Source: a virus | Virus record (IMG/VR): IMGVR_UViG_3300025671_000038 | DNA: 64,000 nucleotides | Strand: one strand, 5' to 3' | Part shown: one piece after another, positions 2-58,782 of the stretch | Numbering within the stretch: position 1 is the stretch's first letter | How the letters are laid out: each line of letters starts with the position of its first letter | The notes under the pieces: generated by a model | Databases searched by the model: none | What the model saw: only the letters and a program-made list of their open reading frames with translations | Told to the model about the DNA's origin: nothing | Position numbers and translations under genes: made by a program

Positions 2-1690
2 TATAACATTACTGTCTTTAATTCCGGAGATGATACTCTGTTTTATTACTGCGTAGAAATACCGGAATTTGACTTTGATGAATGCTTCGACGGTTATGAG
101 GTATCTCAATATTGGATACCACCCAGCGAGGGTCAATTTGTTACACAGATTATCGTGCCTGAAGGCATCGAGGAATTTACCGTTAACATATATCTCTCAG
201 AGGATGAATCAGAAGAAACCCTATCCAATAATACCATAACAGTACCAGTCGTATTCAATGGACCTGACCCATGTCCAATCCTAGGGTGTACAGATGAGGA
301 GGCAATAAACTACAACCCAGACGCAAACGAGGATGACGGCACCTGTGAATACCTGGATTTAACCTTAGATTTAGGTAATGATATCATATGGACTCCACAA
401 GGAACATGTGTTAATCCATTCTATAACCAATCTTTCCTCGTAAATAATACTGGGGAGGGAACTATAGATAACTTCAGTTTAGGAATTACAGTAATCACCT
501 GGGACGGGGATATAGTTTATAGTGGGACTCAAGATTATAACATATCAATCAACCCTGGTGAGAGTTATACAATATCTGACTTCCCCGATATTTTTACTGG
601 TGACTTGAACTACGTCAGTGCGACCCTTACTTGGATTAATGAGCTAGGTGAATTAGAAGAGGATATACAGACTTTTAATCTTATACTATACTGCTGGGGA
701 TGCACTGATCCGGAAGCCAGTAATTACACGGAGAGCGAATATATTTTCGACGAGATACAAGACTACTGGTTAGCCACATTTCCCGGTATAGCTCCGCCTA
801 CCCCAGAGCAGATCGAGTGTACATATGATATATTAGGATGTACCGATCCGGAGGCTGAAAACTACAACCCAGAAGCAAATATAGACGATGGGAGCTGTCA
901 GATCGGTGGATGTACCATTGTCGAGGCATGCAACTACGATCCAGAAGCAACTTACAATAACGGTAGTTGCGATTTTGAAAGCTGCGTTGGGTGTACTGAT
1001 TCGGAAGCAATCAATTATGATCCAGGAGCTACAGAGGATGATGGAAGCTGCATCTACCCAATTTATGGATGCACTGATCCGGATGCATTTAACTACAATC
1101 CCTTAGCCAATACCGACGACGGGAGCTGTGTTGATGTGGTTGTCGGGTGTATGATTCCTGAGGCAATCAACTACGACCCATTAGCAAATATCCAATGTAC
1201 GCCTTTGGATGAGTGCTGCATATTTACGGAAGGATGCACCGATCCGGAGGCTAATAATTATGATGACGAAGCAATTATTGATGATGGTAGCTGTGAGTAT
1301 GATATTTACGGTTGTAATGACCAGAATGCTATCAACTATAACCCAGAGGCAAACATCGACGATGGATCTTGCGTATATGATCCTTGTTCAGGGCTGATCG
1401 GGGCTACTTACTATGCTCCAAACACATTCACCCCTAATAACGACGGGGTAAATGACGGATGGACAGTGGTCACAGATCCAGATTGCTGGCTAAGATGGGA
1501 AGTTTTGGTTTATAACAGATGGGGACAACTCATATGGGAATCTAACTTACCGGGGGAGGTCTGGCCGGGATCGGTTTTCGATGGAGGATATTATGTAGCT
1601 GATGGGGTATACTTCTACAAAATTACAGGAATTGGGTATGACCCAGCCAATACCTTCGAGCAAAGCGGACACATTACAGTATTTAGATAA
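2..1690 (+). CDS. Cys-rich repeat surface protein with T9SS type-B (gliding-motility-associated) C-terminal sorting domain; 5'-truncated
   Basis: Frame is open from base 2 (YNITVFNSGDD...), so the start lies outside the window. Nine GCTDPxAxNYxPxAxxDDGSC-type repeats. C-terminus YAPNTFTPNNDGVNDGW...VYNRWGQLIWES...DGVYFYKI...SGHITVFR is a typical type-B CTD. Confidence 0.85.
   Translation, partial: YNITVFNSGDDTLFYYCVEIPEFDFDECFDGYEVSQYWIPPSEGQFVTQIIVPEGIEEFTVNIYLSEDESEETLSNNTITVPVVFNGPDPCPILGCTDEEAINYNPDANEDDGTCEYLDLTLDLGNDIIWTPQGTCVNPFYNQSFLVNNTGEGTIDNFSLGITVITWDGDIVYSGTQDYNISINPGESYTISDFPDIFTGDLNYVSATLTWINELGELEEDIQTFNLILYCWGCTDPEASNYTESEYIFDEIQDYWLATFPGIAPPTPEQIECTYDILGCTDPEAENYNPEANIDDGSCQIGGCTIVEACNYDPEATYNNGSCDFESCVGCTDSEAINYDPGATEDDGSCIYPIYGCTDPDAFNYNPLANTDDGSCVDVVVGCMIPEAINYDPLANIQCTPLDECCIFTEGCTDPEANNYDDEAIIDDGSCEYDIYGCNDQNAINYNPEANIDDGSCVYDPCSGLIGATYYAPNTFTPNNDGVNDGWTVVTDPDCWLRWEVLVYNRWGQLIWESNLPGEVWPGSVFDGGYYVADGVYFYKITGIGYDPANTFEQSGHITVFR
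284..1372 (+). repeat. Intragenic Cys-rich protein repeats (9 copies)
   Basis: GC(T/M/N)xxxAxNYxxxAxxxxGxC units visible in the translation. Confidence 0.85.
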
Positions 1691-9053: not shown

Positions 9054-10241
9054 CTACCATCCCTTCTTGATGCAATCAGCAATATATTCTCTCTGTTCGC
9101 TTGTTACCCACCATCCTACCGGGATAGAAACGATATTTCCTATTGTTTTATCTAGTGTGGGTAAAGATGTCCGATATTCAGAAACGCATGTGTGTTTATC
9201 ATTCCTCTCGTGAACTTGTGATACAGAAATTCCACACTCATCCATCCATTTATAGAATCCGTCCCGGTCTTCCACAAGCATGGAATATATCCAGAAAGCA
9301 GAATCAAATCCAGGCTCTCTTTTAAGTAGACTAACCCCCTTAACCCCAGCCAGTTCATCGTCATAGTAGGAAGCATTCGATCTGTGCTTACCTATAATCT
9401 CATCAGCGTGCTTCAAGTTCTCCATTCCGACTGTTGCACAAACATCGTTCATATGGAATTTATATCCCCATTCCTCTATATCTGCCTCACACCTGAAGTC
9501 CTTTCTATCGCCATCTCGGTCTATACCATACCACCTTATTAGCTTAGCCCTTCTGTGAAGCTCATTGTGAGGAGATATTAGGATTCCTCCATCTATCGAA
9601 GTAACATGCTTAATGGCTTGCAGAGAAAACATTGTTAGATTGCCATGGTTACCTATTAGCTTGTTTTTGTACCTAGATCCAAATGAATGTGCCCCGTCTT
9701 CTATCACAACTGGTTTGAATCCTATCCTGTAATAGGCTTCCTCCTGTATCTTCCTGACCTTATCAAGATCATTTGGGTAACCTCCCCAGTGAACCAGCAT
9801 AATAGCCTTAGTCTTCGGCGTTATCTTCCTTGCCAGGTCGTCAAGATCCATATTTAAGGTGGTTGGATCTATATCGACCCATTTTATATTGAGTCCGTTA
9901 GCTAGAATAGGCCAATTGGAAGCAGTGCAAGTCATCGGAGTTGCTAAGACCTCATCACCTGGCTGTAACCCGGGCCAATCTTGGTCAGTTGACACAGCGC
10001 CATGATACACAACACTCGATGTCGCTGGCCTTTTAATTAAGTGCAAAGCTAAATGGAGAGCGGAGGTACCTGAATTTACGGTTGAGATATAATCATGGTT
10101 AAAATATCTCTTCAGGTCATTTTCAAATTCTTCTACCTTGGGTCCTTGACCTATATAGCCGCTGTTTAAAACATCAGCAACTTTCTCCCCAGCATCAGGG
10201 GACATAAAAACTTTAAATAAGGGGATGTTACTTTTTTCCAT
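9054..10241 (-). CDS. DegT/DnrJ/EryC1/StrS PLP-dependent sugar aminotransferase
   Basis: NSGTSALHLAL; VIEDGAHSFG; FSLQAIKHVTSIDGG (PLP Lys); GYKFHMND. Start set at MEKSNIPLFKV. Confidence 0.93.
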   Translation of the reverse strand: MEKSNIPLFKVFMSPDAGEKVADVLNSGYIGQGPKVEEFENDLKRYFNHDYISTVNSGTSALHLALHLIKRPATSSVVYHGAVSTDQDWPGLQPGDEVLATPMTCTASNWPILANGLNIKWVDIDPTTLNMDLDDLARKITPKTKAIMLVHWGGYPNDLDKVRKIQEEAYYRIGFKPVVIEDGAHSFGSRYKNKLIGNHGNLTMFSLQAIKHVTSIDGGILISPHNELHRRAKLIRWYGIDRDGDRKDFRCEADIEEWGYKFHMNDVCATVGMENLKHADEIIGKHRSNASYYDDELAGVKGVSLLKREPGFDSAFWIYSMLVEDRDGFYKWMDECGISVSQVHERNDKHTCVSEYRTSLPTLDKTIGNIVSIPVGWWVTSEQREYIADCIKKGW

Positions 10242-10302
10242 CTTGAGACCACATTTGTAATCTATACACGCCGGAGATTCGAAAGTTTCGTAGATATAAA
10301 AC

Positions 10303-10332
10303 AAAAATCCCTGACCTAAAAAGGCCAGGGAT
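10303..10332 (-). terminator. Intrinsic terminator
   Basis: ATCCCTGGCC-loop-GGTCAGGGAT then TTTT; closes the RNA elements upstream. Confidence 0.65.
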
Positions 10333-17052: not shown

Positions 17053-18198
17053 TTAGAAAAGAGTATTAATCATGAATAAGTTGGGACTTATTGGGTTATG
17101 CCCCATAACCTCTATGAATCTATTAATTGGATCAAGGATGGTTTTTGTAAATTGTTCGTCGAAGTCAATCGGGGGAGCAAATTCGTGTGGAAATGTCCCC
17201 TGTGCATAGGCAAAAACATTATTCTCTTTGATGTTTTTGGTCTTTACGAAATAAAACCTAACCTTCTCTCCACTTCCCAAGAGTGGATACTTATCCTTAA
17301 ACCTTGTTGAATTTAGCAAGTAGTTGTGGTAAGCAGAAGCTCTTACGTGTATCGGACACCCTTTAGCTACTTCCAGAGCCGTGGTGTCATTCAGCACGAA
17401 CTTTTCATAGTTATTAACCATGATCGCAGCTGATATATTTTCAGGTTCCTGTGCCTTAAAATCTTTCTTTATGCTCTTGAGCTCCTGTACAAATTCTCTA
17501 AGTTCAAACTTATTACCTCTGCTGAAAATAAATTTAGTTAGGTAGATGAGCTTCTCCCTTACGAACGAAGGTGTCCCTCCCTTAACCATCTCCACCCCCG
17601 TGGTCTTAATAGAGGTGAGAGGATCCGAGTGAACTCCGTCAGAATAAACTATATTGGTTACGTACTTCTTCTTACCAAGAAATATTCCGTTAATAGAGAG
17701 AGTCTCCATTTCGAAATCTTGGTAGTTGTCAGTACCCCATTTCTCAGCGTAGATGTCAAAACACTTCTTGAGGTAACCGACCAATCTATTTTCGTTTATG
17801 GCTAGTATTAGATCTTTGTCGCTTCCTTCCCAACCCTCACAGGAGGCTACAACCTCCTGAAACGTGACATAATTAGAATCAGTGTCCCCGTAAACTACCA
17901 TTGGCTTGTGGATCTTCTTCACAGAGGTTAAACCCAGCTTATCGTGAAGTTCCTTGTCCTTGTGCCAAAACTCGTGGAAATATTTATGAAGAATCTTCTC
18001 CGAGTGCTTGATTAAACTCTGGCCCTGAAGGGTAACAGCCTCAGCTACTTCGGGATTGAAGCAGACGAACCAGCTGTTACCAATTGCTCCATAGATAGAG
18101 TTCATGGTAAGCTTTATCGCTTGTTCCTCGTTCTTAAGCTCGTTTTTTAGAGCTGTAAGGGTTTCAATCTTCTTTTTTAATTCCTCTGCTTCCGACAT
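17053..18198 (-). CDS. Family B DNA polymerase, C-terminal subunit (gp43B-like)
   Basis: Motif B KLTMNSIYG; motif C YGDTDS; KKKY; TGVE; no exonuclease domain or motif A. Confidence 0.92.
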   Translation of the reverse strand: MSEAEELKKKIETLTALKNELKNEEQAIKLTMNSIYGAIGNSWFVCFNPEVAEAVTLQGQSLIKHSEKILHKYFHEFWHKDKELHDKLGLTSVKKIHKPMVVYGDTDSNYVTFQEVVASCEGWEGSDKDLILAINENRLVGYLKKCFDIYAEKWGTDNYQDFEMETLSINGIFLGKKKYVTNIVYSDGVHSDPLTSIKTTGVEMVKGGTPSFVREKLIYLTKFIFSRGNKFELREFVQELKSIKKDFKAQEPENISAAIMVNNYEKFVLNDTTALEVAKGCPIHVRASAYHNYLLNSTRFKDKYPLLGSGEKVRFYFVKTKNIKENNVFAYAQGTFPHEFAPPIDFDEQFTKTILDPINRFIEVMGHNPISPNLFMINTLF

Positions 18199-29300: not shown

Positions 29301-30575
29301 CTAAGCTTCCTGCTTACTAGCTTTATTTCTCTCCTCTATAGATTGAGCTTTCTTTAGAGCAGCTTCCCTAAAGTATTCGTAATTTTTACGTATTCTGGTT
29401 TTTTCGTTTTCATTCATCGATACGAAGAAGGGCATTCTCATAATGGCTTCCATCTTCTCAGCTGATATCTCCGGATTACCAGTGTGGTAAGCAGCTAGTG
29501 CAAATTCGTCAAGTAATCTCCACTGCCAAATTTCGGGTTCGACGAACAGTATATCGGAGGTTCCGTGATTTTTTACTGCCATGTTGCCATATGTAAATGA
29601 GAGGACCCATCTATTCTGCTCTCTCAGCTTTCTCATAGCGTGAAATACAGCCTCAAGTCTCTCTGGTCTATATTCCCAAGCTTTGGAATAAGCAGCAATA
29701 ACCTCGTCGGGATGCCTTCCCAACTGCTCTTTAAGTCTCCCTATCATATAAAGAGAATAATAAACCTCCTCTTCCCATCCACCAGCTTCAGCTCTTTTCT
29801 GATATGCATCTATCGCTTTTACCTTCTGCTGGGAATCTCTATAGCTCTGAGCAAGGTAGAACATATATCTAGCATTATCAGGCTCCTTTTCTAGCGCCTC
29901 TTCAAGGATTTCAGCGTCCTTTGCATATTTTTCTTCTAGCGAGTTAGCCCTTTTGAGCGGGCTAATATCAGCATCTACCCTACACCTGTCTCCGGGAATT
30001 TGGTATTGTATAAGAGGCTCCTTCCCAGGCAAATCCAGATATTCGTGCAGAACTCCTTTGTATATCCAATCTTGGTCTGATCTTACTATCTGAGCCCTAT
30101 GGTACTGGAGATTGTTGAGCCTATACATTATCTGGAAGCAATCCACATCCGGGGGTAGATTTGAGAATGGGTTTACATTGGGATTTAAAACCTCGAACGT
30201 GTCGTCCGCATCTATTACCCAGAGATAATCACATTTTCCCCTAGCTAATTCTAAACTTTCAGTTCGGTTAACTTCGAAGTTAACCCAAGGTCTCTCGTGG
30301 ATTTCCCCGTCTATTCCAAGATCACCCATGGTGGATCTTATCTCCTCTATAGTATTATCGCTGGATCCGGTATCACATATTACGTAATAGGATATGTAAG
30401 GAGCACATTTGGTTAAACACTTCCTGATTGTGTCCTCCTCATCCTTTACAATCATCACCAGACAAAGGCTAATTGACTGCTCGTTATTGAAATCCGCCTT
30501 CTGCGGATTCGCAATCTGTTTTTTATTAGATCTAGGTTTGGATTTAGTTCTAGTCCTGGATTTTTTAGATGCCAT
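29301..30575 (-). CDS. GT2-family glycosyltransferase with TPR repeats
   Basis: LCLVMIVKDEE; CDTGSSDNT; IDADD; WIYKGVLHE; TPR-like FYLAQSYRD. Confidence 0.9.
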   Translation of the reverse strand: MASKKSRTRTKSKPRSNKKQIANPQKADFNNEQSISLCLVMIVKDEEDTIRKCLTKCAPYISYYVICDTGSSDNTIEEIRSTMGDLGIDGEIHERPWVNFEVNRTESLELARGKCDYLWVIDADDTFEVLNPNVNPFSNLPPDVDCFQIMYRLNNLQYHRAQIVRSDQDWIYKGVLHEYLDLPGKEPLIQYQIPGDRCRVDADISPLKRANSLEEKYAKDAEILEEALEKEPDNARYMFYLAQSYRDSQQKVKAIDAYQKRAEAGGWEEEVYYSLYMIGRLKEQLGRHPDEVIAAYSKAWEYRPERLEAVFHAMRKLREQNRWVLSFTYGNMAVKNHGTSDILFVEPEIWQWRLLDEFALAAYHTGNPEISAEKMEAIMRMPFFVSMNENEKTRIRKNYEYFREAALKKAQSIEERNKASKQEA

Positions 30576-31384: not shown

Positions 31385-31742
31385 ATTTGTTATCCCATTC
31401 TTCGGGAGAGATTATACTAGCAAAAGTCTTCTCGCTGTCGTTAACATATAGATATATCTCTATTCCTATATAAGGCTCAAAGGAAATTTTAGATGACCAT
31501 ATCATCTGGTTGTCTGCGTATTCACTATAGAGATCACTGATTTGCTCCCTAATTTCCTCAGCTCTCTTATTGAATTTTTTTGCTGCTTTAGATACAGCAC
31601 CACCTTTAAATTTGGAGATATCATCTATCTGGAAGCTGGGAGCTCCCAGAGAAGTTGGATATGGTTTAGAGAAAGCATCAAAAATTCCAGTATCCGGGTT
31701 AAAAACTACTGAATCTGGAAGTTTACGATTTTTCTTCTCCAC
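31329..31742 (-). CDS. DUF2452-like protein
   Basis: PYPTSLGAPSF...FEPYIG..YLY...SIISPEEW. Confidence 0.65.
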   Translation of the reverse strand: MEKKNRKLPDSVVFNPDTGIFDAFSKPYPTSLGAPSFQIDDISKFKGGAVSKAAKKFNKRAEEIREQISDLYSEYADNQMIWSSKISFEPYIGIEIYLYVNDSEKTFASIISPEEWDNKFECLGRFKLDTDYSWKRI

Positions 31743-32364
31743 CGGATTCCTGATTTATCCCTATTTTTTTGAGAACATCCTTATAAACCTCATCGGGTTT
31801 AAGAGAAGCGTCGATTTTAACTAGTTTTCTGCTTTTTCTGTACTTATCCAGGAGAGGTTTAGTTTTGCTTTCGTATTTGTCGAACCTCTTATTTATTACT
31901 TCCTCGTTTTTATCGTCTTCCCTATTTTCCTTTTCTGCCCTTTTCAGTATCCTTTCCCTAGATTTCTTTCTGCTCAGATCCAAGTAGACGCAGTGGCTTA
32001 GGCCTACCCCTAATTTTCCCAGAATGGAATCAAGCATTTTGGTTTGCTTTAATGTTCTTGGAAATCCGTCTATGACTACCCCCTTCTCAAGATCCGCCTT
32101 TCCTAGCTCCTTTCTTAACATTCTAGCCATGATTCGATCCGGTATGTAATCACCACCGGCTACAATTTTCTTCAGTTCTTCGTCTTTTGAATTTCGTATG
32201 AGCTCTCCGGTGGAGATATGAGTAAATCCATTACCGGACTCCAATTTTTTAGAAATTGTTCCCTTACCAGATCCGGGAGGACCCATTATGATCAGGATTT
32301 CCCCCTGCTTGTCCGGGATTTCTCTCTCGTTGATGAAATATTCGTAGCTTTTAACCTTATCCAT
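31723..32364 (-). CDS. adk: Adenylate kinase (short LID)
   Basis: GPPGSGKGT; HISTGELIR; DGFPRT; REDD; N-terminal extension MDKVKSYEYFINE. Confidence 0.93.
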   Translation of the reverse strand: MDKVKSYEYFINEREIPDKQGEILIIMGPPGSGKGTISKKLESGNGFTHISTGELIRNSKDEELKKIVAGGDYIPDRIMARMLRKELGKADLEKGVVIDGFPRTLKQTKMLDSILGKLGVGLSHCVYLDLSRKKSRERILKRAEKENREDDKNEEVINKRFDKYESKTKPLLDKYRKSRKLVKIDASLKPDEVYKDVLKKIGINQESGGEEKS

Positions 32365-32404: not shown

Positions 32405-33010
32405 CTATTTCTTTTCAAAATACCAGGTTCCGTACCATTCATTAGTTTTTGACACCTGGTATCCTCTGGATTCACAAAATTCATCTACCGCAGGATTTAC
32501 CCCAAATACCCCGGAATAGCCATATTCATCATAAATATGCTTATCCTTCCCGTTCGGTAAAAATAATGGATCGTTATACCAGTCCATGTCGAGATAATCA
32601 TGTCCCATGACCAATCCTCCCTTTCTTACCTTGGGGTACCAGAGATTTATATCCTCCTTGACAGAATCGTATGAGTGGTTAGCATCAATAAAAACAAAAT
32701 CTAGGCTCTCGTCGGGAAATAGCTTATATGCCTGATCAGAAAATGCCCTTATCATAATAGCTCTCCTGCCGAATGGGGCCATTCTATCTACACATTCACT
32801 GAGAATCATATAGGGTGAATGCTTACCGTGATTAGAAGAATCCGGATAATCTTCCTCGTCTAAACTCCTCCACACATCCACCATGTAGAGTTCACCTTCC
32901 CACCTTTTCAGTATCTCCGCAGAGAATTCACCCTTAAGAGATCCGATCTCAGCTCCTACCTTATAACCCCTTTTTACGAAATACTCGTCTATTAAATCTT
33001 CCCTCTCCAT
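32405..33010 (-). CDS. Class I SAM methyltransferase (Methyltransf_24-like)
   Basis: GAEIGSLKG; LDFVFIDANHSY; GHDY. Confidence 0.88.
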   Translation of the reverse strand: MEREDLIDEYFVKRGYKVGAEIGSLKGEFSAEILKRWEGELYMVDVWRSLDEEDYPDSSNHGKHSPYMILSECVDRMAPFGRRAIMIRAFSDQAYKLFPDESLDFVFIDANHSYDSVKEDINLWYPKVRKGGLVMGHDYLDMDWYNDPLFLPNGKDKHIYDEYGYSGVFGVNPAVDEFCESRGYQVSKTNEWYGTWYFEKK

Positions 33011-33019
33011 TTACTCGTA

Positions 33020-33808
33020 TTATTTGAAAAACCCGCTATCGTAGACCTGTCGACGGGACTCCCACTTCTCCCGGTTGGAATATCCCTTTCTGGTCGATGA
33101 TATTTCATTGAGACCCAGTATATCCCGAGCTATTTCATAACTTTCCAGTGTTCCCCAATCCCTAGGATTTTTAAAGCTCTTATAATATCTCCATCCAGAT
33201 TTACAGATCCAACCGGAATAAAGATCCTGGTACCCCTGGGGGGTTCCGGTCGCAGATATTCCATTATTTTCCATGTCAAATCTTCCTATCTCAAAATGGG
33301 CATAAGTTTCAAGATCTTCCTCTTGGGAATTTATTAGCATCCCACTGTGCTTAAATATCCTTTCGATTTTGGACGAAAATTCTCCTTCAATCCCAAGATA
33401 AACCTGGCATTGCTTCTCCCTCATGTAAACCAAAGCTTGCTCAGCCCAACATTTGGCATCAGATAGAGATTCCGCGTGTAGATCTATTTTAACCTTCTTG
33501 CCACGAGGATCGTAAGATTCTTCACCTACCTTCATCATACCAAACTCTGAATCGCAGTAGTAAACCTCCACCTTTATATCACCAGCGAAGGACCGGAAAA
33601 AAGAGAACCACGTGTGTTGATGCATAACAACGCTTTCTAGTATTCCATATTCCTTCATGCCATGCATTCTTTCGCTAATTGTACATAGCAAAGTTTCCCC
33701 CGGAGGCACACCAGGGAAAGATCCTAGTGTTATTCTAAATCCTTTATTAAAATCTAAAGCTAGTCCCATTATCTTATTTTTTTCTAAGTACCCTATTCCC
33801 AATAACAA
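33020..33808 (-). CDS. Protein resembling the N-terminal half of Aah/TibC autotransporter heptosyltransferases
   Basis: LDFNKGFRI...GKKVKIDLHAESLSDAKCW...KQCQVY; no C-terminal GT-B half recognisable. Confidence 0.45.
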   Translation of the reverse strand: MLLGIGYLEKNKIMGLALDFNKGFRITLGSFPGVPPGETLLCTISERMHGMKEYGILESVVMHQHTWFSFFRSFAGDIKVEVYYCDSEFGMMKVGEESYDPRGKKVKIDLHAESLSDAKCWAEQALVYMREKQCQVYLGIEGEFSSKIERIFKHSGMLINSQEEDLETYAHFEIGRFDMENNGISATGTPQGYQDLYSGWICKSGWRYYKSFKNPRDWGTLESYEIARDILGLNEISSTRKGYSNREKWESRRQVYDSGFFK

Positions 33809-35360
33809 GAATATCTATCGTACCGTTTCTCAGATGACGAATGGCATGATGAGGATTATCTATTATGGGTTCCCCGTGACCGTTGAAAGAAGTATTTAGG
33901 ACCGCAGGTATACCAGTTTTTTTGTAGAATGCATTAATAACTTCCCAGAAGTACCCATTTGTTTCCTTATTAACCAATTGAGGTCTGGAAGTCTTATCCT
34001 CCCTATGGTAGCAAGCGGATATTTTATCCCTCCATTCGCTCTTAACAGTATAGCAAATAGTCATGAATTCAGAGGAATACTTAGACTTCCACCCGAATTC
34101 AAATAAATCTTCTGAAAACTCAGAGAGAACAGCAGGTGCAAAAGGCATAACCTGATTCCTTCCCAACCTTTCATTAAGTTTTGCGTGCATTTCTGGATCT
34201 GAGGGATTAACCAAGATGGACCTTGCACCCAGAGCTCTAGCACCATATTCGAATTTACCGTTGAATAGACCCACTATATCGCCCCGAACTATATGTGAAG
34301 CCAAATCATCCAGCGAAAGATCACTTTCATCCAAGTCGTCGTATTGGGAGATAGCTTCCGATATCTCTTCTTGGTTGTAGTCCAATCCATAAAAACAGTT
34401 ATCAAGCTTAAATGGATGTTTAATTTCGCCAAGGTCCCTGGCCATACATATAGCGGAACCTAGAGAAACCCCCTCGTCTCCCATTACCGGGACGACATAT
34501 ATCTCGTCTATAAGGTCTATCTCATTTATCTTCTGGTTCATCTTAACATTATGGAAAAGACCACCAGATAGCCCTATTTTTTTAGAATGCTCCGGATATT
34601 TATAACAAAGGTCCTTTATAAAGCGAACCATTATATTCTCAGTAACATCCTGTACAGCTCTAGCAAAATTCTGTCTACCTTCTTCAGAATCCAATATTCC
34701 TCTTTCTCTTACCTTGTTAAAAGCATAATTAGCAAAAAGATCCGTTCCAGCATTTTTTATTGAGAGAGAACCTGGCTCTTCATAAAAAATTATCTGGTTC
34801 ATTAGCGACTGAAGATACTCGTCATATCTTCCGTTAGCAGACATACCCATGACTTTGCCCTCATCTTGATGAGGTTTCCATCCAAGGATAGATGTTGCTT
34901 GAGTCCATAAGTTAGCTAACGATCCGAAAATATGGGAGGGCATAGAAAAAACCTGTTCCATTTTGCCATCCTCACATAACCAGACGTCTCCGTAGTTACC
35001 GTCCCCTCCACCATCGTAAGAAACCATCATACATTTTCCAGAAAATCCTGAAGTAAAATAAGTGGAAGCAGCGTGACATTCGTGATGTGGAAATTCTCTC
35101 ACTTGTCTGTCCCCGAGGTTATCTTTTATGAAGACATACGAGGTTGGAGTAGCAGTAGTCAGATAGTCTGCCTCGTCTATAGGCACTCCTGTAAAATCCT
35201 GTATTTTTTCCAAAGAAAGAGCGGGATAAGAAAAATCCGTATCCCCGCTCTTAACTCTGGTTATTCTCTCCTCCTGGATAGCTATCTTGATCTTCCCGTC
35301 TTCTATATAAACTATGGAAGCATCGTGAGCACCACCGTAAAAGCCATATATTTTGCTCAT
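33774..35360 (-). CDS. Carbamoyltransferase (CmcH/NodU family)
   Basis: HDAS...EERITRVK; HHECHAAS; DGGGD; EGKVMGM; GDEGVSLG; GARALGARSIL; LNTSFNGHGEPI. Confidence 0.95.
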   Translation of the reverse strand: MSKIYGFYGGAHDASIVYIEDGKIKIAIQEERITRVKSGDTDFSYPALSLEKIQDFTGVPIDEADYLTTATPTSYVFIKDNLGDRQVREFPHHECHAASTYFTSGFSGKCMMVSYDGGGDGNYGDVWLCEDGKMEQVFSMPSHIFGSLANLWTQATSILGWKPHQDEGKVMGMSANGRYDEYLQSLMNQIIFYEEPGSLSIKNAGTDLFANYAFNKVRERGILDSEEGRQNFARAVQDVTENIMVRFIKDLCYKYPEHSKKIGLSGGLFHNVKMNQKINEIDLIDEIYVVPVMGDEGVSLGSAICMARDLGEIKHPFKLDNCFYGLDYNQEEISEAISQYDDLDESDLSLDDLASHIVRGDIVGLFNGKFEYGARALGARSILVNPSDPEMHAKLNERLGRNQVMPFAPAVLSEFSEDLFEFGWKSKYSSEFMTICYTVKSEWRDKISACYHREDKTSRPQLVNKETNGYFWEVINAFYKKTGIPAVLNTSFNGHGEPIIDNPHHAIRHLRNGTIDILVIGNRVLRKK

Positions 35361-53677: not shown

Positions 53678-54631
53678 TTAAAGGTCAGAATAGAGATCAT
53701 CCAAAGAAGAAGCTGTCTCTGGACTAGATGGTTGCTTCAGGGGTTGTTCCTCTTGTGGGGTGTTTCCAACCTTCGTCGAAGATACCTCGTTGTAGATATC
53801 GTCTGCGGTTCTAGAGGTGGAAGGTGCAGGGGTAGACGAAACGTTAGCTCCGGACATAACTTCATTAACCATTCTGCCATCCGGTACTGTGTTCCTGATG
53901 ATGTTCATCACCCTTTCCGTGGTATTCTCGTCCCAATCCTTGTATTCAAAATTGGTAAGGTTATCCGGTCCCGTTTTAAGATACTCCAGAATAGTATCCA
54001 TGTCCTTCTTGTTCTTACCCATCTTCTTTCCGTCTATCTCTATGGGTGTATTGTTACCCACGAATTGACAGAGATCGTAATTGTTCCATTCACCAACCTT
54101 TCTAGAATGTATAGAGAATAGCTTACCCTCGAACAGATCATATGGGTTGCAAGGGTCACCGTATTCTGGCTTCAGTTGAGATTCCAGCATATCGTTGATC
54201 TTACGACCAAATTTAAAGGTCATGATCTTCCCTTCTAGCTCGGGGTTGTTTTTATCCTGTACGATCTGGATGAGAGAGTAATAATCCTCCTTTCTGGAGA
54301 AGTTTCTAGCCAGATCCTGATCTGCAGCAGAATTGGAGTTCTTAAGCTTCCAAAAGATGTCTTTAAGAACTGATTTTTTACCTACTGTGGACGGACAATC
54401 TACAGGGAATCCATCTCCTGTTGTAGGATCATTAAGATATACGTAGTATTTCTGAATTTTGGATTTGGCCGGATCTACGTGGTTTGGTAAAAACCTAATT
54501 AGAGACTTGTAAACCCCATCCTTTCCGTTTTCCGGGTACGGCTTGTAAAATTCTAAATCTCTCGAATCTTCCTTCTTGCTCTTCGTTACGAAGTTATCAA
54601 CATCTAAGTTGAAAATGTCTAAATTACTCAT
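53678..54631 (-). CDS. ssDNA-binding protein (T4 gp32-like)
   Basis: IRFLP; CPSTVG; FKFGRKI; NPYDLFEG; NYD; acidic tail DDLYSDL. Confidence 0.88.
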   Translation of the reverse strand: MSNLDIFNLDVDNFVTKSKKEDSRDLEFYKPYPENGKDGVYKSLIRFLPNHVDPAKSKIQKYYVYLNDPTTGDGFPVDCPSTVGKKSVLKDIFWKLKNSNSAADQDLARNFSRKEDYYSLIQIVQDKNNPELEGKIMTFKFGRKINDMLESQLKPEYGDPCNPYDLFEGKLFSIHSRKVGEWNNYDLCQFVGNNTPIEIDGKKMGKNKKDMDTILEYLKTGPDNLTNFEYKDWDENTTERVMNIIRNTVPDGRMVNEVMSGANVSSTPAPSTSRTADDIYNEVSSTKVGNTPQEEQPLKQPSSPETASSLDDLYSDL

Positions 54632-54670: not shown

Positions 54671-55456
54671 CTAAGTGTCCCAAAAGTTTCCCCTAGACTG
54701 TATATATCCCGAACTTTTTTTTATATCGTTACCCTTTCTTACTTGCTCCGTGGGTAACATGATCCCTCGGAGTGAAACCTGAAGGTCACTTCTCACAACA
54801 CCATATTCCGATGTGAGTAAATGGTTTCTTAAAAGAGTCTCGGGGTGAAAGAATATCGCATCCCTTGTAAGATAGTTCTCAAGATTTTCATAGAGGCTAC
54901 AATAGTGACCCATTGCATCCCTAGCTCCATAAGCTATCACATCGTTAATACCTCCCCTCCAATCAAATCCCTGAGGGATAGCGATCATATTTTTTCCAAA
55001 ATTGAAAAAAAGATCGTTGTGCACCTTTATATCAAATCTTCCCTTTATAATATAGTCATATCTCCTACCCACGGATCTCTCATACTTCTGCATAAGATGG
55101 TATGAGGAATTGATTTTATACCACATACAAAAAACAGACTGCGGATTAATCTCGCCATTCAGTGGGGAATAACCCTCATAAATCATCGATCTCTCCCTTA
55201 TTTTGGTTATAGTCTCCGATTCAAAATCCTCCATCAGGATGGATTTTGGCTTATAGAGGGAAATAGCATCACCAACGCTAAGACTATCTCTCAGGTTACC
55301 CGTATAGGGCTGAACGGTTTCTCTTATCTCGTCAGAGGGATTCCAGGATGAGATGAAAACATCCGGGGAGTACTTGTCAAGTATCCTGCTTTTTATATAG
55401 GGGTAACATTCCAGACCTTCCCTAAATTGACCCGAAAGAAGTAAAGCTACTCTCAT
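54671..55456 (-). CDS. Hypothetical glycan-associated protein (MRVALLLSGQFR family; putative transferase)
   Basis: RVALLLSGQFR; DVFISSW; MWYKI; YDYIIKGRFD; INDVIAYG; HPETLL. Last gene of the RLP operon. Confidence 0.6.
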   Translation of the reverse strand: MRVALLLSGQFREGLECYPYIKSRILDKYSPDVFISSWNPSDEIRETVQPYTGNLRDSLSVGDAISLYKPKSILMEDFESETITKIRERSMIYEGYSPLNGEINPQSVFCMWYKINSSYHLMQKYERSVGRRYDYIIKGRFDIKVHNDLFFNFGKNMIAIPQGFDWRGGINDVIAYGARDAMGHYCSLYENLENYLTRDAIFFHPETLLRNHLLTSEYGVVRSDLQVSLRGIMLPTEQVRKGNDIKKSSGYIQSRGNFWDT

Positions 55457-55896
55457 CTATACTTTCCTATATAGTCACTGCAAATTCCTGAGCAGACCGC
55501 GATATCCTCATCATTAACTTCAGGCATAACGGCTATGCTATTTTCTATTGGTTGCTTTCCTACTAAGGCCCAGCGATAACCCTTACTAGTAAAAACCACA
55601 TCGTCGGATTCATGAACAAAATAATTTAGAAAATCCCCCGCCGGATCTATTCTGGAAAGCTCACGAAAAGCTAGCAAATTTTTACAATGGATCCAAAGCT
55701 TCCTGGAGTTCTTCAAAAGGAATTCGTATTGAATCTCGTGTTGTGGCTCATCGTGTCCAAGTTTAAACATCCCGTCAATGAACCAGAGATCTATTTCAAC
55801 TTCGTAATTGTATAAAGCTTCAACTATATAATCAGGATCGTTCTCCCTTTTGGAATTAGGACCATCAATATTTCCGCGATGTGATATTAATATCAT
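55453..55896 (-). CDS. Small PI-PLC/glycerophosphodiesterase-like protein
   Basis: ISHRGN; VEIDLW; LGHD; WIHCKN; ICSD. Confidence 0.7.
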   Translation of the reverse strand: MILISHRGNIDGPNSKRENDPDYIVEALYNYEVEIDLWFIDGMFKLGHDEPQHEIQYEFLLKNSRKLWIHCKNLLAFRELSRIDPAGDFLNYFVHESDDVVFTSKGYRWALVGKQPIENSIAVMPEVNDEDIAVCSGICSDYIGKYR

Positions 55897-55902
55897 CTGC
55901 TC

Positions 55903-57093
55903 TCAAGAATTCACAAACTTATAGATAGCTTCTCTATACTCTTTTCCCCTCTCACCATCGATTGCCTGCCTCATAGCAATCGCACCACTTTTAGTTCCGC
56001 TTGGGTGACCGTGCATTGCTCCTCCTACATTTGCTAGGTAATCAACACCAACCTGCTCGTTTATCTGGTCCACAAGACCAGGGTGGAATCCACAGCTTAA
56101 AGCAGGGAGAGTTCCTTGATTTCTTGATTGCTCTATAGCGGCTAAAACCTCCTCCTCGTCAGCAGGATAATATCCGCCAATCATTCCCGAGTGAATAAAG
56201 TCCACCCCCATCATTCCAGCAAGCTTGCACATGAAAGGCCAAGAGATGCTAAATTGGTGATCCGGGTTTGTTATAACTCTATCTCCGCTCTTTTGGAAAT
56301 GCATAAAAAGCGGGAGATCGAGCTCCCTTATGTTTTTATAAACTCCCAGCCCGCACCAAAAGTTAACGTGTATCCCATTACCTCCTAGTTCGTAAACCTG
56401 TTTTACTCTCTCCAGTATATAGGCAGGATCTGAATGGATAGAAACACAATAAACCACATTCTTATCTTTCAAATAATCCATGATAAGTGGAACCCGGTCC
56501 TCTATCTTACAGAATGATGGGCTGGAAAGTATTTCATCCTCCTTGATGAAATTCACTCCTCCCTCAACCATTTCCTTAACCATCTCCAGCATGACTTGTG
56601 GCGAGACCCCAGTTTTTGGCTTTAGTATTCCTCCGAGGAGTGGCTTGTTGTAGACACCGGTAAATTTTCTTATACCATCAATCCCATATTTAGGTCCCAT
56701 AAAACAATCAGAAACACATTCCGGAAAATCTATGTCAATCAACTTGCATTTTTTTATTTCGGCTATATCCATCTGACCTCCCATTACATTCACCAACAAG
56801 TGAGCAACCCCGTCAGTTTTAAAGTCAATGTTTATCACAGGGAAAGCAATAGTGACCTCCCCCGTTTTTTCATTGCTCATATCTCCCATATCACCGACGA
56901 TCAAACAAGAGTGATTCTCAAAGAGCTCATCAGTTTCCCAGACACTCCTGGATGATGGGTTACCCACACTTTGACCTATTGCTATATTCCAAGCAGCAGA
57001 TGCTAAATTCTTAGAACATTCAACATAATACTTAGCAAAGAAGTACTTGTCAGCATCTATTTGATTTCTCGATTTAAATAATTCAGATTTCAT
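55903..57093 (-). CDS. RuBisCO-like protein (form IV RLP)
   Basis: GPKYGIDGIR; GILKPKTG; NFIKEDE; DFIHSG; PALSCG; NVGGAMHGHPSG..GA.AMRQA. Confidence 0.93.
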   Translation of the reverse strand: MKSELFKSRNQIDADKYFFAKYYVECSKNLASAAWNIAIGQSVGNPSSRSVWETDELFENHSCLIVGDMGDMSNEKTGEVTIAFPVINIDFKTDGVAHLLVNVMGGQMDIAEIKKCKLIDIDFPECVSDCFMGPKYGIDGIRKFTGVYNKPLLGGILKPKTGVSPQVMLEMVKEMVEGGVNFIKEDEILSSPSFCKIEDRVPLIMDYLKDKNVVYCVSIHSDPAYILERVKQVYELGGNGIHVNFWCGLGVYKNIRELDLPLFMHFQKSGDRVITNPDHQFSISWPFMCKLAGMMGVDFIHSGMIGGYYPADEEEVLAAIEQSRNQGTLPALSCGFHPGLVDQINEQVGVDYLANVGGAMHGHPSGTKSGAIAMRQAIDGERGKEYREAIYKFVNS

Positions 57094-57403
57094 ACTTATC
57101 TCCCGGTTTAGAGGGTGTCTTAACTATAAAAACCTCGCAGTCTTCGAGGAAAACAGGATTAGCTATCTCGTATTTCCTGATAACGAAAACATCACCAGCT
57201 TTGAGTATTTTGTCCTGTATAATCATTCTACCCTTGTGGAGGTAGTTTATTTCGTCAGCTTCTTTGTGATAGTGTGCTGGCCAATCCTCTCCTTTCTTAT
57301 GCCTTTTAAAGCATATCTCAAATTGATCGGTTTTATAAGCGGAGGGAAGGAAGTCTCCAACGAACCATCCACCCTGGTAATCATCTATTTTAGATACTTC
57401 CAT
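57083..57403 (-). CDS. Small cupin
   Basis: GWFVGDF; HYHKEADEINY; VKTPS..GDKY. Confidence 0.8.
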   Translation of the reverse strand: MEVSKIDDYQGGWFVGDFLPSAYKTDQFEICFKRHKKGEDWPAHYHKEADEINYLHKGRMIIQDKILKAGDVFVIRKYEIANPVFLEDCEVFIVKTPSKPGDKYEI

Positions 57404-58136
57404 TGGCTATTTTATTTTTATAAATCTCAAGATCTTCCGGGGTACCTATCGGGAAATGAAGGTTGAAGAAATATGGCAATATCTTTTTACCCCTCTTTAT
57501 CAAATAGTTATATGAGGGAGCAACGTAAAACTCACTGTTATACCGGTCATTAGCTTCTATCATCTCCATCGAGGATTCTACGAAATCGGACCCTCTCTTC
57601 CAGTAGTGCAATCCGTTAGTAGCTATATTTGATATAACTATTTTTTCCTTCACGTCACAAACTTCCCCGTTTGGATCCAATTTGACGTAACTATTCTTTT
57701 TAGAGGAAGATAAAAAGCATCCTAAGAACCCATCACAAGCCGTATTTGAAGCAAACTTGGATAAAACATTAAGATCATAGTCCAATATAATCTGATCACA
57801 GTTTACTATGATCAAAGGATCATTGGTATTAATGATAGACTGGGCCAGTAGAGCAGTACAGGCTGGTCCTTCTGTTAATTTCGGGGTGGAAATAACGTCA
57901 TGTGAAATAGGCATATCGGATATGTGCCTCTTAAACTCATCGACAGATATGTGCTCCTCGTTGATCACGAATATAAAATGGGCAGACTCATTGTGGAGGT
58001 TTCCGACTACGGTCCGTATCATAGAATCGTCGATGACCTTGATATAAGGTTTAATCTCGTTATACCCAGCATCGGAAAATCTTTTTCCCATCCCGCCTAG
58101 GGGTATCAGTATATTAATCCTCCTTAAGTCTTCCAT
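57390..58136 (-). CDS. Sugar-phosphate nucleotidyltransferase-like (GT-A fold NTP transferase)
   Basis: LIPLGGMGKRF...KPYI; TEGPACT; IVNCDQ; EFYVAPSYN; GTPEDL. Confidence 0.85.
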   Translation of the reverse strand: MEDLRRINILIPLGGMGKRFSDAGYNEIKPYIKVIDDSMIRTVVGNLHNESAHFIFVINEEHISVDEFKRHISDMPISHDVISTPKLTEGPACTALLAQSIINTNDPLIIVNCDQIILDYDLNVLSKFASNTACDGFLGCFLSSSKKNSYVKLDPNGEVCDVKEKIVISNIATNGLHYWKRGSDFVESSMEMIEANDRYNSEFYVAPSYNYLIKRGKKILPYFFNLHFPIGTPEDLEIYKNKIANGSI

Positions 58137-58782
58137 CTAAAAAAATACAAATCCAGGTAGCATCAATAAGATCATCCAGAGGTTTATTTACATTTCCGCT
58201 GGGCGTTATCCATTCTCCCCTATTACTTTCAAGTATATTAGTGAAATAGCTCAGATTGGTTTCAGCTCTTTTACAATTAACTAGGGAATCATAGAGCTGA
58301 TGTTTTTTTGCATTCCCTTTAATAGCGAATTTCTTAATGGAGGTCGGGGAAAAAACATAAAAATTCGAACTACCCACCTCGTCAACTATTTTTTTTCTAA
58401 GTAGGGCAGTAGCCATAGAGATGTCAATTAGGGCATTACCATTGGATGCAAAACTTAAACCCTCCATAGCTATATAGATCTCGTCACCCTCTTGGGTGTG
58501 AGATATGACTGAATCCCAGAATCGGTCGACTAGGTCGGAAAAGTAATCAATCTTAAGCCTCTCCCTTTCGGAGTATTCCTCAGGCATTTTCTCTTTTCCC
58601 ATAAACATGAGATCAAACCCATCCATTTCGGAGAGGAATGCGAATGGTTTTGCTTTAGATCTTTTTAGTGATTCTTCTGTGCGATCACTTCGGGTAAGTG
58701 ATCCCCATTTAAATTGATTATCCCTAAGCAAACAAAAAGCTGGCGAGTTCAGAGAAAAATCTATTCCGATAAGAGTTCTCAA
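58114..58782 (-). CDS. RuvC-like RNase H-fold nuclease / Holliday junction resolvase
   Basis: IGIDFSLNSPA; AMEGLSF; PTSIKKFA..GNAKK; DDLIDA. GATATATA at 58810-58817. Confidence 0.8.
   Translation of the reverse strand: MRTLIGIDFSLNSPAFCLLRDNQFKWGSLTRSDRTEESLKRSKAKPFAFLSEMDGFDLMFMGKEKMPEEYSERERLKIDYFSDLVDRFWDSVISHTQEGDEIYIAMEGLSFASNGNALIDISMATALLRKKIVDEVGSSNFYVFSPTSIKKFAIKGNAKKHQLYDSLVNCKRAETNLSYFTNILESNRGEWITPSGNVNKPLDDLIDATWICIFLDGRLKED

Follow-up and report, generated by a model that had tools for sequence, protein, structure and literature searches.

A phage RuBisCO-like protein in a gene cassette of probable nucleotide-sugar function

RuBisCO-like proteins (RLPs) have been reported from phages before: Jaffe, Castelle, Dupont and Banfield (bioRxiv 10.1101/386292, PMC6389311) described about 90 “IV-like” RLPs on phage contigs, a divergent set from large myovirus-type contigs of many environments that groups with Beckwithbacteria, is missing key RuBisCO residues and has an unclear function. 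Here, we analyse an RLP encoded on IMG/VR virus record IMGVR_UViG_3300025671_000038, a stretch of 64,000 nucleotides that we call the window, in which it occupies the middle of a five-gene cassette consisting of a nucleoside triphosphate (NTP)-transferase, a putative cupin, the RLP, a small predicted phosphodiesterase of the glycerophosphodiester phosphodiesterase (GDPD) type, hereafter mini-GDPD, and a 261-residue protein (p261) that models with a GT-A fold. We consider it probable that the products of this cassette build an unusual carbohydrate unit, activated by a nucleotide, and hand it on to a glycan on the surface of the infected cell or on the virion. Such a role has no prior demonstration in the RuBisCO-like enzyme family; to our knowledge, every characterised RLP serves salvage or catabolism.

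Among the described systems, the methionine-salvage enolase MtnW/YkrW (2zvi, 2oek) shares with the window RLP the fold, the Mg/carbamate triad, the P1 glycines, an enolisation-type chemistry and the absence of carboxylation residues, and the Rhodospirillum rubrum RLP (methylthioribulose-1-phosphate [MTRu-1-P] 1,3-isomerase) and OiaX/OiaC are likewise RLPs whose reactions pass through an enediolate, either moving a carbonyl or acting on a keto-acid phosphate. RLPs and cupins occur as pairs in methionine-salvage-type pathways, and in R. rubrum the partner is a cupin methylsulfurylase. However, the R. rubrum and apiose-pathway RLPs are salvage or catabolic enzymes that work without a nucleotidyltransferase. 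The succession of a sugar-phosphate step, a PF00483 enzyme, cupin or short-chain dehydrogenase/reductase (SDR) tailoring and a GT-A transferase is instead found in the RmlA-D pathway and in the GDP-heptose pathway (GmhA/HddA/GmhB/HddC). From these classical nucleoside diphosphate (NDP)-sugar pathways the window cassette differs in having neither kinase nor mutase, and we know of no RuBisCO-fold enzyme and no GDPD-type diesterase in any of them.

The RLP family of the window has phage members and, in our tree, a Beckwithbacteria homologue (L027, 55% identical), and from this shared membership we infer that it is probably the “form IV-like” phage/Beckwithbacteria clade of Jaffe et al. That paper left the function open and the gene neighbourhood undescribed, whereas here the RLP appears in an NTP-transferase/cupin/mini-GDPD/GT-A context, with gene fusions and with members in SAR11, Verrucomicrobia and DPANN archaea. 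The preliminary description of this locus had put it forward as an undescribed system; this applies to the pathway reading but not to phage RLPs as such, which were already published (Jaffe et al., PMC6389311). In the literature, we found no functional study or pathway for an RLP with a nucleotidyltransferase, for a giant-virus RLP, for DUF7796 or for 4EVW. New here are the core of NTP-transferase, mini-GDPD and GT-A protein with proposed exchangeable feeders, the modelled GT-A fold of the last gene product, the structural placement of mini-GDPD, the prevalence in SAR11 and a lead to a Bacteroidota host.

The RuBisCO-like protein and its active site

The RLP is a member of the RuBisCO large-subunit superfamily, with both Pfam domains above their gathering scores: PF00016 (RuBisCO_large) at 2e-33 and 116 bits (cutoff 30), and PF02788 (the RuBisCO N-terminal domain) at 21.8 bits (cutoff 20.7). 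Against the NCBIfam equivalogs for form III, MtnW, OiaX and form II it stays far under each cutoff. The best NCBIfam score is that of form III (182 bits, cutoff 497); the MtnW models gave 157 bits (NF007095, cutoff 409) and 129 bits (TIGR03332, cutoff 514), and the model for OiaX (3-oxo-isoapionate-4-phosphate decarboxylase) gave 142 bits, which does not approach its cutoff of 700. In a phmmer search of the PDB, the MtnW structures 2zvi and 2oek were among the best matches with 124-125 bits, and the true RuBisCO 8dht scored equally.

Active-site residues, given in spinach numbering, were mapped through HMMER alignments to RuBisCO 8dht and to a pair of MtnW structures, and a script verified their positions. 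The retained residues that the preliminary description had read from a manual alignment were all recovered: K175/K177 correspond to K158/K160 of the RLP (K158-P-K160), K201-x-D203-E204, that is, the carbamylatable lysine and the Mg ligands, to K184-E-D186-E187, H327 to H301, S379 to S333, and the P1 glycines G403/G404 to G357/G358. The same holds for its substitutions H294Q (Q267) and R295K (K268) and for the missing K334 of loop 6, which is about 7 residues shorter than in 8dht; further changes are H298D (D271), G380C (C334) and D198N (N181). E60 and N123 are also lost, in loops that read IGQSVGNP and MGGQ, but their proposed replacement by glutamine (E60Q, N123Q) hinges on a shift of one position, as HMMER aligns G40 and G106 to these sites and places Q41 and Q107 next to them.

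The retained residues, Q267, K268 and D271 and the readings of the E60 and N123 loops do not vary among 21 family members with 58-86% identity to the window RLP. All 21 have the Mg/carbamate triad, the equivalents of K175/K177, H327 and S379 and both P1 glycines, and in all of them Q267-K268 stands in place of H294-R295. Because this pattern is invariant, it argues for a conserved, non-carboxylating catalytic function of the family. Since the Mg/carbamate site and the P1 glycines are retained and the carboxylation residues are lost, the pattern predicts an enolisation followed by reprotonation, i.e., an epimerisation or a carbonyl shift.

A carboxylating RuBisCO of forms I-III was rejected, given that E60, N123, H294, R295, H298 and K334 are all absent and that the form III score remains far from its cutoff; the earlier statement that the RLP does not carboxylate ribulose 1,5-bisphosphate is thus borne out. 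These residues also bear on an alternative in which the RLP would act on ribulose or ribose bisphosphates in pentose or nucleoside salvage, for energy or nucleotides, the module diverting carbon of the host in the manner of the AMP-RuBisCO pathway of archaea and Candidate Phyla Radiation (CPR) bacteria. Relatives of the RLP do occur in CPR bacteria and DPANN archaea, whose form III RuBisCO works in nucleoside salvage (Jaffe et al., PMC6389311), and form III is the best NCBIfam match. However, the residues for carboxylation are missing, no AMP phosphorylase or ribose 1,5-bisphosphate isomerase was seen among the neighbours, and within glycan loci the RLP is constantly paired with an NTP-transferase, which leaves this alternative exceedingly unlikely.

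Identity with MtnW was likewise rejected. Its equivalog scores are far below the cutoffs, and the N123-equivalent position, which in the 2oek alignment is the column of K98 of Geobacillus MtnW, presumably the catalytic lysine of that enzyme, reads G-G-Q without a lysine in every RLP family member examined. Judged by hidden Markov model cutoffs and residue mapping, the RLP therefore does not go with MtnW, a placement that the preliminary description had allowed for. Nevertheless, a role in methionine salvage or sulfur metabolism could be imagined, in which the RLP is an MtnW enolase or a Rhodospirillum-type MTRu-1-P isomerase and the cupin is the counterpart of acireductone dioxygenase or of the methylsulfurylase, the two forming an auxiliary metabolic pair. 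This would agree with the MtnW structures among the best PDB matches and with the known RLP-cupin pairs. Yet RuBisCO 8dht matches as well as MtnW does, the MtnW model scores and the G-G-Q motif speak against the enzyme itself, mtnA, mtnB, mtnK and mtnX were not seen among the neighbours, and the constant partner of the RLP is an NTP-transferase, even fused to it, in a context of glycan synthesis. We regard a methionine-salvage role as very unlikely.

Partner genes, neighbourhoods and proposed exchangeable feeders

The NTP-transferase falls within the sugar-1-phosphate nucleotidylyltransferase family (PF00483 at 5e-11, 43 bits, cutoff 21.2; phrog_3980 at 9e-53), and no NCBIfam equivalog is approached. 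It carries the N-terminal motif IPLGGMGKRF, and G15, G17, R19, K29 and P30 of the G-x-G-x-R...K-P motif are invariant in the family, as is an EK motif that we take to be typical of sugar-1-phosphate enzymes. With a family profile, the closest solved structure is the uncharacterised V. cholerae protein 4evw (129 bits), next come the sugar-1-phosphate nucleotidyltransferases ManC/RmlA/HddC (41-51 bits), and inositol-1-phosphate cytidylyltransferase and LicC score under these (27-35 bits). The protein is presumed to be the enzyme that makes the NDP-linked unit. The cupin matches phrog_24762 at 1e-30 and reaches Cupin_2 only below the cutoff (3e-4, 20.9 bits, cutoff 27.2). Its motif 1 is intact (H44-x-H46-x4-E51-x6-G58, plus H35) and invariant in 11 orthologues, in whose alignment no conserved histidine of motif 2 was seen. 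The weak matches of its profile are to metal cupins, namely YxaG, KdgF and one of the mannose-6-phosphate-isomerase type. We treat the protein as a putative modifying enzyme that depends on a metal, for instance an isomerase or an epimerase.

A Pfam scan gave no match to mini-GDPD or p261, the GDPD model included. The mini-GDPD (phrog_34507 at 4e-27) has the invariant motifs H6 R7 G8 (HRG), E34-x-D36 and H48 D49 (HD) and a structure predicted with a pLDDT of 96. While Foldseek alone is weak for this model (E 4.5e-3), VIA-align returns GDPD or phospholipase D (PLD)-type phosphodiesterases in 21 of its 22 top matches (Z 10.2-7.5), aligned as whole chains over about 140 of the 147 residues. In length, it falls about 40% short of the known superfamily members, and its solved structural relatives include the teichoic-acid-degrading GlpQ and a domain of phage K gp155. 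As modelled, mini-GDPD is a complete but stripped-down GDPD barrel and a member of the GDPD superfamily.

Structure prediction was also run for p261 (phrog_13607 at 2e-15; pLDDT 87). The protein models with a GT-A nucleotide-sugar-transferase fold: Foldseek finds GT6/GT8 enzymes (BoGT6a, glycogenin, ABO transferases) at E ~1e-6, and VIA-align reaches Z 11.4 with Mnn9, ColGalT1, WrtF and SpsA. D32, W38, Y133-D134 and R140 are invariant and D142 and D172 are present in at least 90% of sequences, with D134, R140 and D142 located where the acidic (DxD-type) motif after strand 4 is expected. The clusters of p261 look-alikes are mostly viral; some homologues carry DUF7796 (PF25072), to which p261 itself is loosely related. 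We consider p261 a putative transferase for the activated unit. The GT-A fold thus agrees with the earlier proposal that the last gene transfers the unit to a glycan or to DNA, although it is genome position alone that speaks for DNA as the acceptor.

In the window, the NTP-transferase gene overlaps that of the cupin by 14 nt and the cupin gene overlaps that of the RLP by 11 nt; 6 nt lie between the RLP and mini-GDPD genes, and the latter shares 4 nt with the p261 gene. These values, which we recomputed from the coordinates of the open reading frames (ORFs), agree with the preliminary description, as do the coordinates of the five-gene operon and its insertion between a RuvC-like gene and the gene for gp32 (Table 1). 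The RuvC-like gene overlaps the start of the NTP-transferase by 23 nt and hence probably shares its transcript, and 39 nt separate the end of the cassette from gp32. Because the only terminator-like hairpins that a terminator scan finds here precede the RuvC-like gene (58844-58829) or follow gp32 (53663-53633, strong), a single transcript spanning the RuvC-like gene, the cassette and gp32 is plausible. A complex prediction for the RLP and the NTP-transferase scored 0.23 against a mark of 0.32, which counts neither for nor against an interaction.

How far the gene set is conserved can be seen from the homologues of the RLP, which number more than 2,600 proteins in public metagenomes at E <= 0.001, the best 120 listed being at least 63% identical. 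The loci used were 16 from IMG/VR (RLPs 59-86% identical to that of the window) and 20 from cellular sequences or metagenome-assembled genomes (MAGs; RLPs 43-60% identical), 19 of the latter having enough flank to be compared. The cellular carriers include a complete Pelagibacter chromosome, a Verrucomicrobiae chromosome, Patescibacteria, Beckwithbacteria, Saccharibacteria and Woesearchaeota. An NTP-transferase gene adjoins the RLP gene in 33 of the 35 loci (16/16 viral, 17/19 cellular), in permuted gene order, a recurrence that is far from chance. Among the viral loci, mini-GDPD is present in 13/13 with downstream flank, the cupin in 13 and a p261-like gene in about half. The conserved unit is therefore the RLP with the NTP-transferase, whereas the genes for the cupin, mini-GDPD and the GT-A protein often accompany it but can be missing. 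This unit is both smaller than the five-gene set expected earlier and more mobile. In two metagenomic proteins of 813 and 817 aa (P0150/P0151), RLP, NTP-transferase and cupin are fused into one chain; one of the two contigs is assigned to a giant virus because it carries a poxvirus-type Pox_VLTF3 gene, and on the giant-virus-like contig L045 an NTP-transferase-cupin fusion lies beside an RLP gene. Taken together, conserved neighbourhood and RLP-NTP-transferase-cupin fusions support a functional link between the cassette genes.

An unrooted within-family tree of the RLPs, built without classical form I-IV references, places the window RLP among ten viral sequences that form a clade with strong support (98/97). 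Elsewhere in the tree, bacterial, archaeal and giant-virus sequences are interleaved, which indicates lateral transfer. Within Pelagibacterales, the RLP was found in 2 of 301 sampled species, a prevalence that fits a gene of a hypervariable island in SAR11. In contrast to its frequency in IMG/VR, the cassette is absent at this sensitivity from cultured or deposited phages: neither tblastn of the RLP nor blastn of the cassette found anything among 50,697 deposited phage genomes, and tblastn of p261 against deposited phage genomes was equally empty. On a short contig of a Phycisphaerales MAG (L029:311-3270), the RLP gene is followed by one for an ATP-dependent DNA ligase and no NTP-transferase was seen; this contig is probably a further piece of phage DNA that ended up in a MAG bin.

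In phages, SAR11, Verrucomicrobia, CPR bacteria and DPANN archaea, the related loci lie nearly always within glycan gene clusters. The neighbours in other phages comprise SDR epimerases, FkbM methyltransferases, GT1/2/4/7/25 glycosyltransferases, UDP-GlcNAc 2-epimerase and UDP-glucose dehydrogenase, and those in SAR11 an SDR epimerase/dehydratase, a DegT aminotransferase and a CMP-sugar cytidylyltransferase. The claim of an RLP pathway in a virus gains from this glycan-biosynthesis context, but the pathway is not virus-specific, given the cellular relatives with the same neighbours. Only the closest relatives, which are L004/L005 and the phage contig L030 (Saprospirales MAG contig CALAZP010000190.1), likewise have the cassette in the replication module. 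In L030 it precedes gp32 and primase just as in the window (L030:6612-12581), and a RuvC-like gene was not detected upstream of it. Its gp32 and primase are 80% and 73% identical to those of the window, whereas the cassette is far more diverged (RLP 53%, GDPD 49%, p261 50%) and its RLP falls outside the clade of the window RLP, which suggests either replacement or fast evolution of the cassette.

The location raises the alternative that the activated sugar is put onto the bases of the phage DNA. T-even phages have DNA glycosyltransferases among their DNA-metabolism genes, and here the cassette shares the interval between the two terminator-like hairpins with the RuvC-like gene and gp32. Elsewhere, however, the cassette is part of phage clusters with multiple glycosyltransferases and of O-antigen-type loci of SAR11, Verrucomicrobia, CPR bacteria and archaea, the replication-module position is limited to the closest relatives named above, and no thymidylate-synthase-like hydroxymethylase was found among the 31 further window ORFs scanned, a subset of all ORFs. 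DNA hypermodification thus appears quite unlikely.

A further comparison is with cyanomyoviruses (S-CAM9, S-PRM1, DSL-LC03, S-SKS1, S-SM2), whose clusters are also uncharacterised. They contain homologues of the NTP-transferase (26-41% identical), a mini-GDPD (37-42% identical) and one to three p261-like paralogues beside glycosyltransferases, but neither an RLP nor a cupin of the RLP-associated type. In place of the RLP, other enzymes would feed the NTP-transferase, in three arrangements that each have at least one of mini-GDPD and p261-like genes alongside: in S-CAM9, S-PRM1 and DSL-LC03, the NTP-transferase is fused to a haloacid dehalogenase (HAD) domain of the beta-phosphoglucomutase (beta-PGM) family; in S-SKS1, it is fused to a RibB domain (TIGR00506, 188 bits, cutoff 177); and in S-SM2, it is duplicated in tandem amid genes for a ribulose-phosphate-type class II aldolase, an RfaE-type kinase and SIS proteins, with a distant cupin. 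RibB, AraD-type aldolases and RuBisCO-fold enzymes all handle ribulose-type phosphates via metal-bound enediolates. Because of this shared chemistry, the RLP reads as one of several interchangeable feeders for a core of NTP-transferase, mini-GDPD and GT-A protein, which would turn a ketose of the pentose-phosphate pool into an ester for the NTP-transferase. Two annotations in S-SKS1 deserve a remark: that of gp42 (L041:6001-7428) covers only the RibB half of the NTP-transferase-RibB fusion, and L041:8377-8733, deposited as “phosphoheptose isomerase”, matches the EcbF/BcbF subfamily of capsule-biosynthesis HAD phosphatases (TIGR01689, 93 bits, below cutoff).

A proposed pathway and its alternatives

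Gene linkage and family assignments come out of the computation, whereas each chemical step of the pathway that we propose, and the order of the steps, is inferred. An RLP dimer, with K184 carbamylated and Mg2+ held by D186/E187, would bind a phosphorylated 2-ketose from the pentose- or ribulose-phosphate pool, form the enediolate and then, as K334, E60, N123 and H294 are absent, reprotonate it instead of carboxylating it, the net result being an epimerisation or a carbonyl shift. The NTP-transferase would join the resulting phosphate ester to a nucleoside monophosphate to give an NDP-linked unit, which the cupin would then modify, and the GT-A-fold protein would pass the unit to an acceptor. 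For mini-GDPD, cleavage or editing of a phosphodiester in the pathway is our guess. The preliminary description had both the cupin and the RLP act before activation; this order is not established, and the fusion order RLP-NTP-transferase-cupin fits a cupin acting after activation, at the NDP level, at least equally well and to our mind favours it.

Several points weigh against this proposal. The relatives of the NTP-transferase with an assigned function that come closest are sugar-1-phosphate enzymes, whereas the known reactions of RLPs end in primary phosphate esters, and the cassette contains no kinase or mutase; the chemistry of the hand-over between RLP and NTP-transferase is thus the weak point of the scheme. 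Moreover, nucleotidyltransferases share the GT-A fold of p261 with a Z of ~9.5, only slightly lower than the best transferases; the role of mini-GDPD is a guess; and the cassette of the window sits in a replication module rather than in a glycan cluster.

A variant of the same proposal resembles teichoic-acid synthesis. Here, the RLP would supply a ketol or ketopentose that bears its phosphate at a primary position, from which the NTP-transferase would make an NDP-ketose or NDP-polyol; the unit would be installed through a phosphodiester, and mini-GDPD would trim or edit this bond. CDP-ribitol, CDP-xylulose and CDP-6-fructose are precedents for such donors. The variant would give the ever-present GDPD-type diesterase of the conserved core, with GlpQ and the gp155 domain among its solved relatives, a natural role, and it is in line with the absence of a kinase or mutase, with the alternative fused feeder RibB, which makes a primary-phosphate ketol, and with the scores of homologous NTP-transferases on NTP_transf_3/IspD models. 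On the other hand, the NTP-transferase profile places sugar-1-phosphate enzymes above inositol-1-phosphate cytidylyltransferase and LicC and the EK motif is kept, p261 resembles glycosyltransferases rather than phosphotransferases of the TagF or LicD type, and the fusions with beta-PGM-type HAD domains suggest a sugar-1-phosphate supplied by a mutase. We therefore consider the teichoic-acid-like variant possible but on the doubtful side; the other form of the proposal is that a true NDP-glycosyl donor would be made and used by the GT-A protein.

Beyond the single cassette, it is tempting to speculate that the family represents a biosynthetic clade of RLPs, which would carry out a new enediolate rearrangement of a ribulose-type phosphate whose product is nucleotide-activated and put on glycans by phages, giant viruses and a few streamlined cells, with the RLP being interchangeable with RibB, beta-PGM-type HAD and aldolase feeders upstream of one GDPD-containing core. 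If so, there would be a family of NDP-ketose or ketol building blocks in the surface glycans of aquatic microbes and viruses. For this wider claim we would grant somewhat less than an even chance.

The phage, its host and the meaning of the RLP family

The window is part of a large tailed phage. A cellular origin was rejected because it carries genes for T4-type topoisomerase II subunits, a class I ribonucleotide reductase, a helicase, a primase, gp32 and a tail-tube protein, and a RuvC-like resolvase is encoded as well; RLPs identical to that of the window are recorded on contigs of up to 184,870 bp. Since its gp32 is at most 38% identical to that of any deposited phage, the lineage is not a cultured one. 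At one end of the window lies the gene for a protein with a C-terminal CHU_C type IX secretion (T9SS) sorting domain, which is typical of Bacteroidota; together with the binning of the L030 contig in a Saprospirales MAG, this points weakly to a Bacteroidota host.

Table 1. Position of the cassette genes, their flanks and other genes of the window
Feature	Length	Position	Strand	Basis
Protein with C-terminal CHU_C T9SS sorting domain (frame open to the window start at base 2)		155-1690	+	PF13585, 5e-15
DegT-type aminotransferase		9054-10304	-	BLAST to L035
ORF matching DNA_pol_B (one of two)		17053-18198	-	DNA_pol_B
GT2-TPR protein		29301-30575	-	
Adenylate kinase		31723-32364		
Methyltransf_24 protein		32405-33010	-	Methyltransf_24
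NodU/CmcH-like carbamoyltransferase		33774-35360	-	
Protein with weak N-terminal RNA-ligase match and C-terminal cytidylyltransferase match	641 aa	46491-48416	-	phrog_3041/395
gp32 single-strand DNA-binding protein (downstream flank)		53678-54631	-	PF08804 1.8e-11, phrog_224 9e-35
Putative GT-A-fold protein (p261)	261 aa	54671-55456	-	phrog_13607, GT-A fold model
Predicted mini-GDPD phosphodiesterase	147 aa	55453-55896	-	phrog_34507, GDPD fold model
RLP	396 aa	55903-57093	-	PF00016, PF02788
Putative cupin	106 aa	57083-57403	-	Cupin_2 below cutoff, phrog_24762
NTP-transferase	248 aa	57390-58136	-	PF00483, phrog_3980
RuvC-like resolvase (upstream flank)		58114-58782	-	phrog_159 at 5.5e-14

Outside the cassette, the window has further carbohydrate-type genes, namely those for the GT2-TPR protein, the Methyltransf_24 protein, the carbamoyltransferase and the aminotransferase of Table 1 and one for a GNAT acetyltransferase. 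DNA_pol_B is matched by two separate ORFs and the exonuclease domain by one, and the family B DNA polymerase of the phage may be split across genes. The 641-aa protein is an unusual fusion of RNA-ligase-like and cytidylyltransferase-like parts. Adenylate kinase, ClpP, a full-length DnaJ (J, CXXCXGXG and C-terminal domains) and a UvdE UV endonuclease are encoded as well.

If it is true that the RLP is biosynthetic and linked to nucleotide sugars, this would add a new reaction class to a much-studied enzyme fold. The cassette is small, with five soluble proteins encoded in 3.5 kb, and can be tested directly in vitro. Given the size of the RLP family and its spread over phages, giant viruses, SAR11, CPR bacteria and DPANN archaea, its product could be widespread in the surface glycans of aquatic environments and could then matter for phage adsorption, for superinfection exclusion and for grazing.

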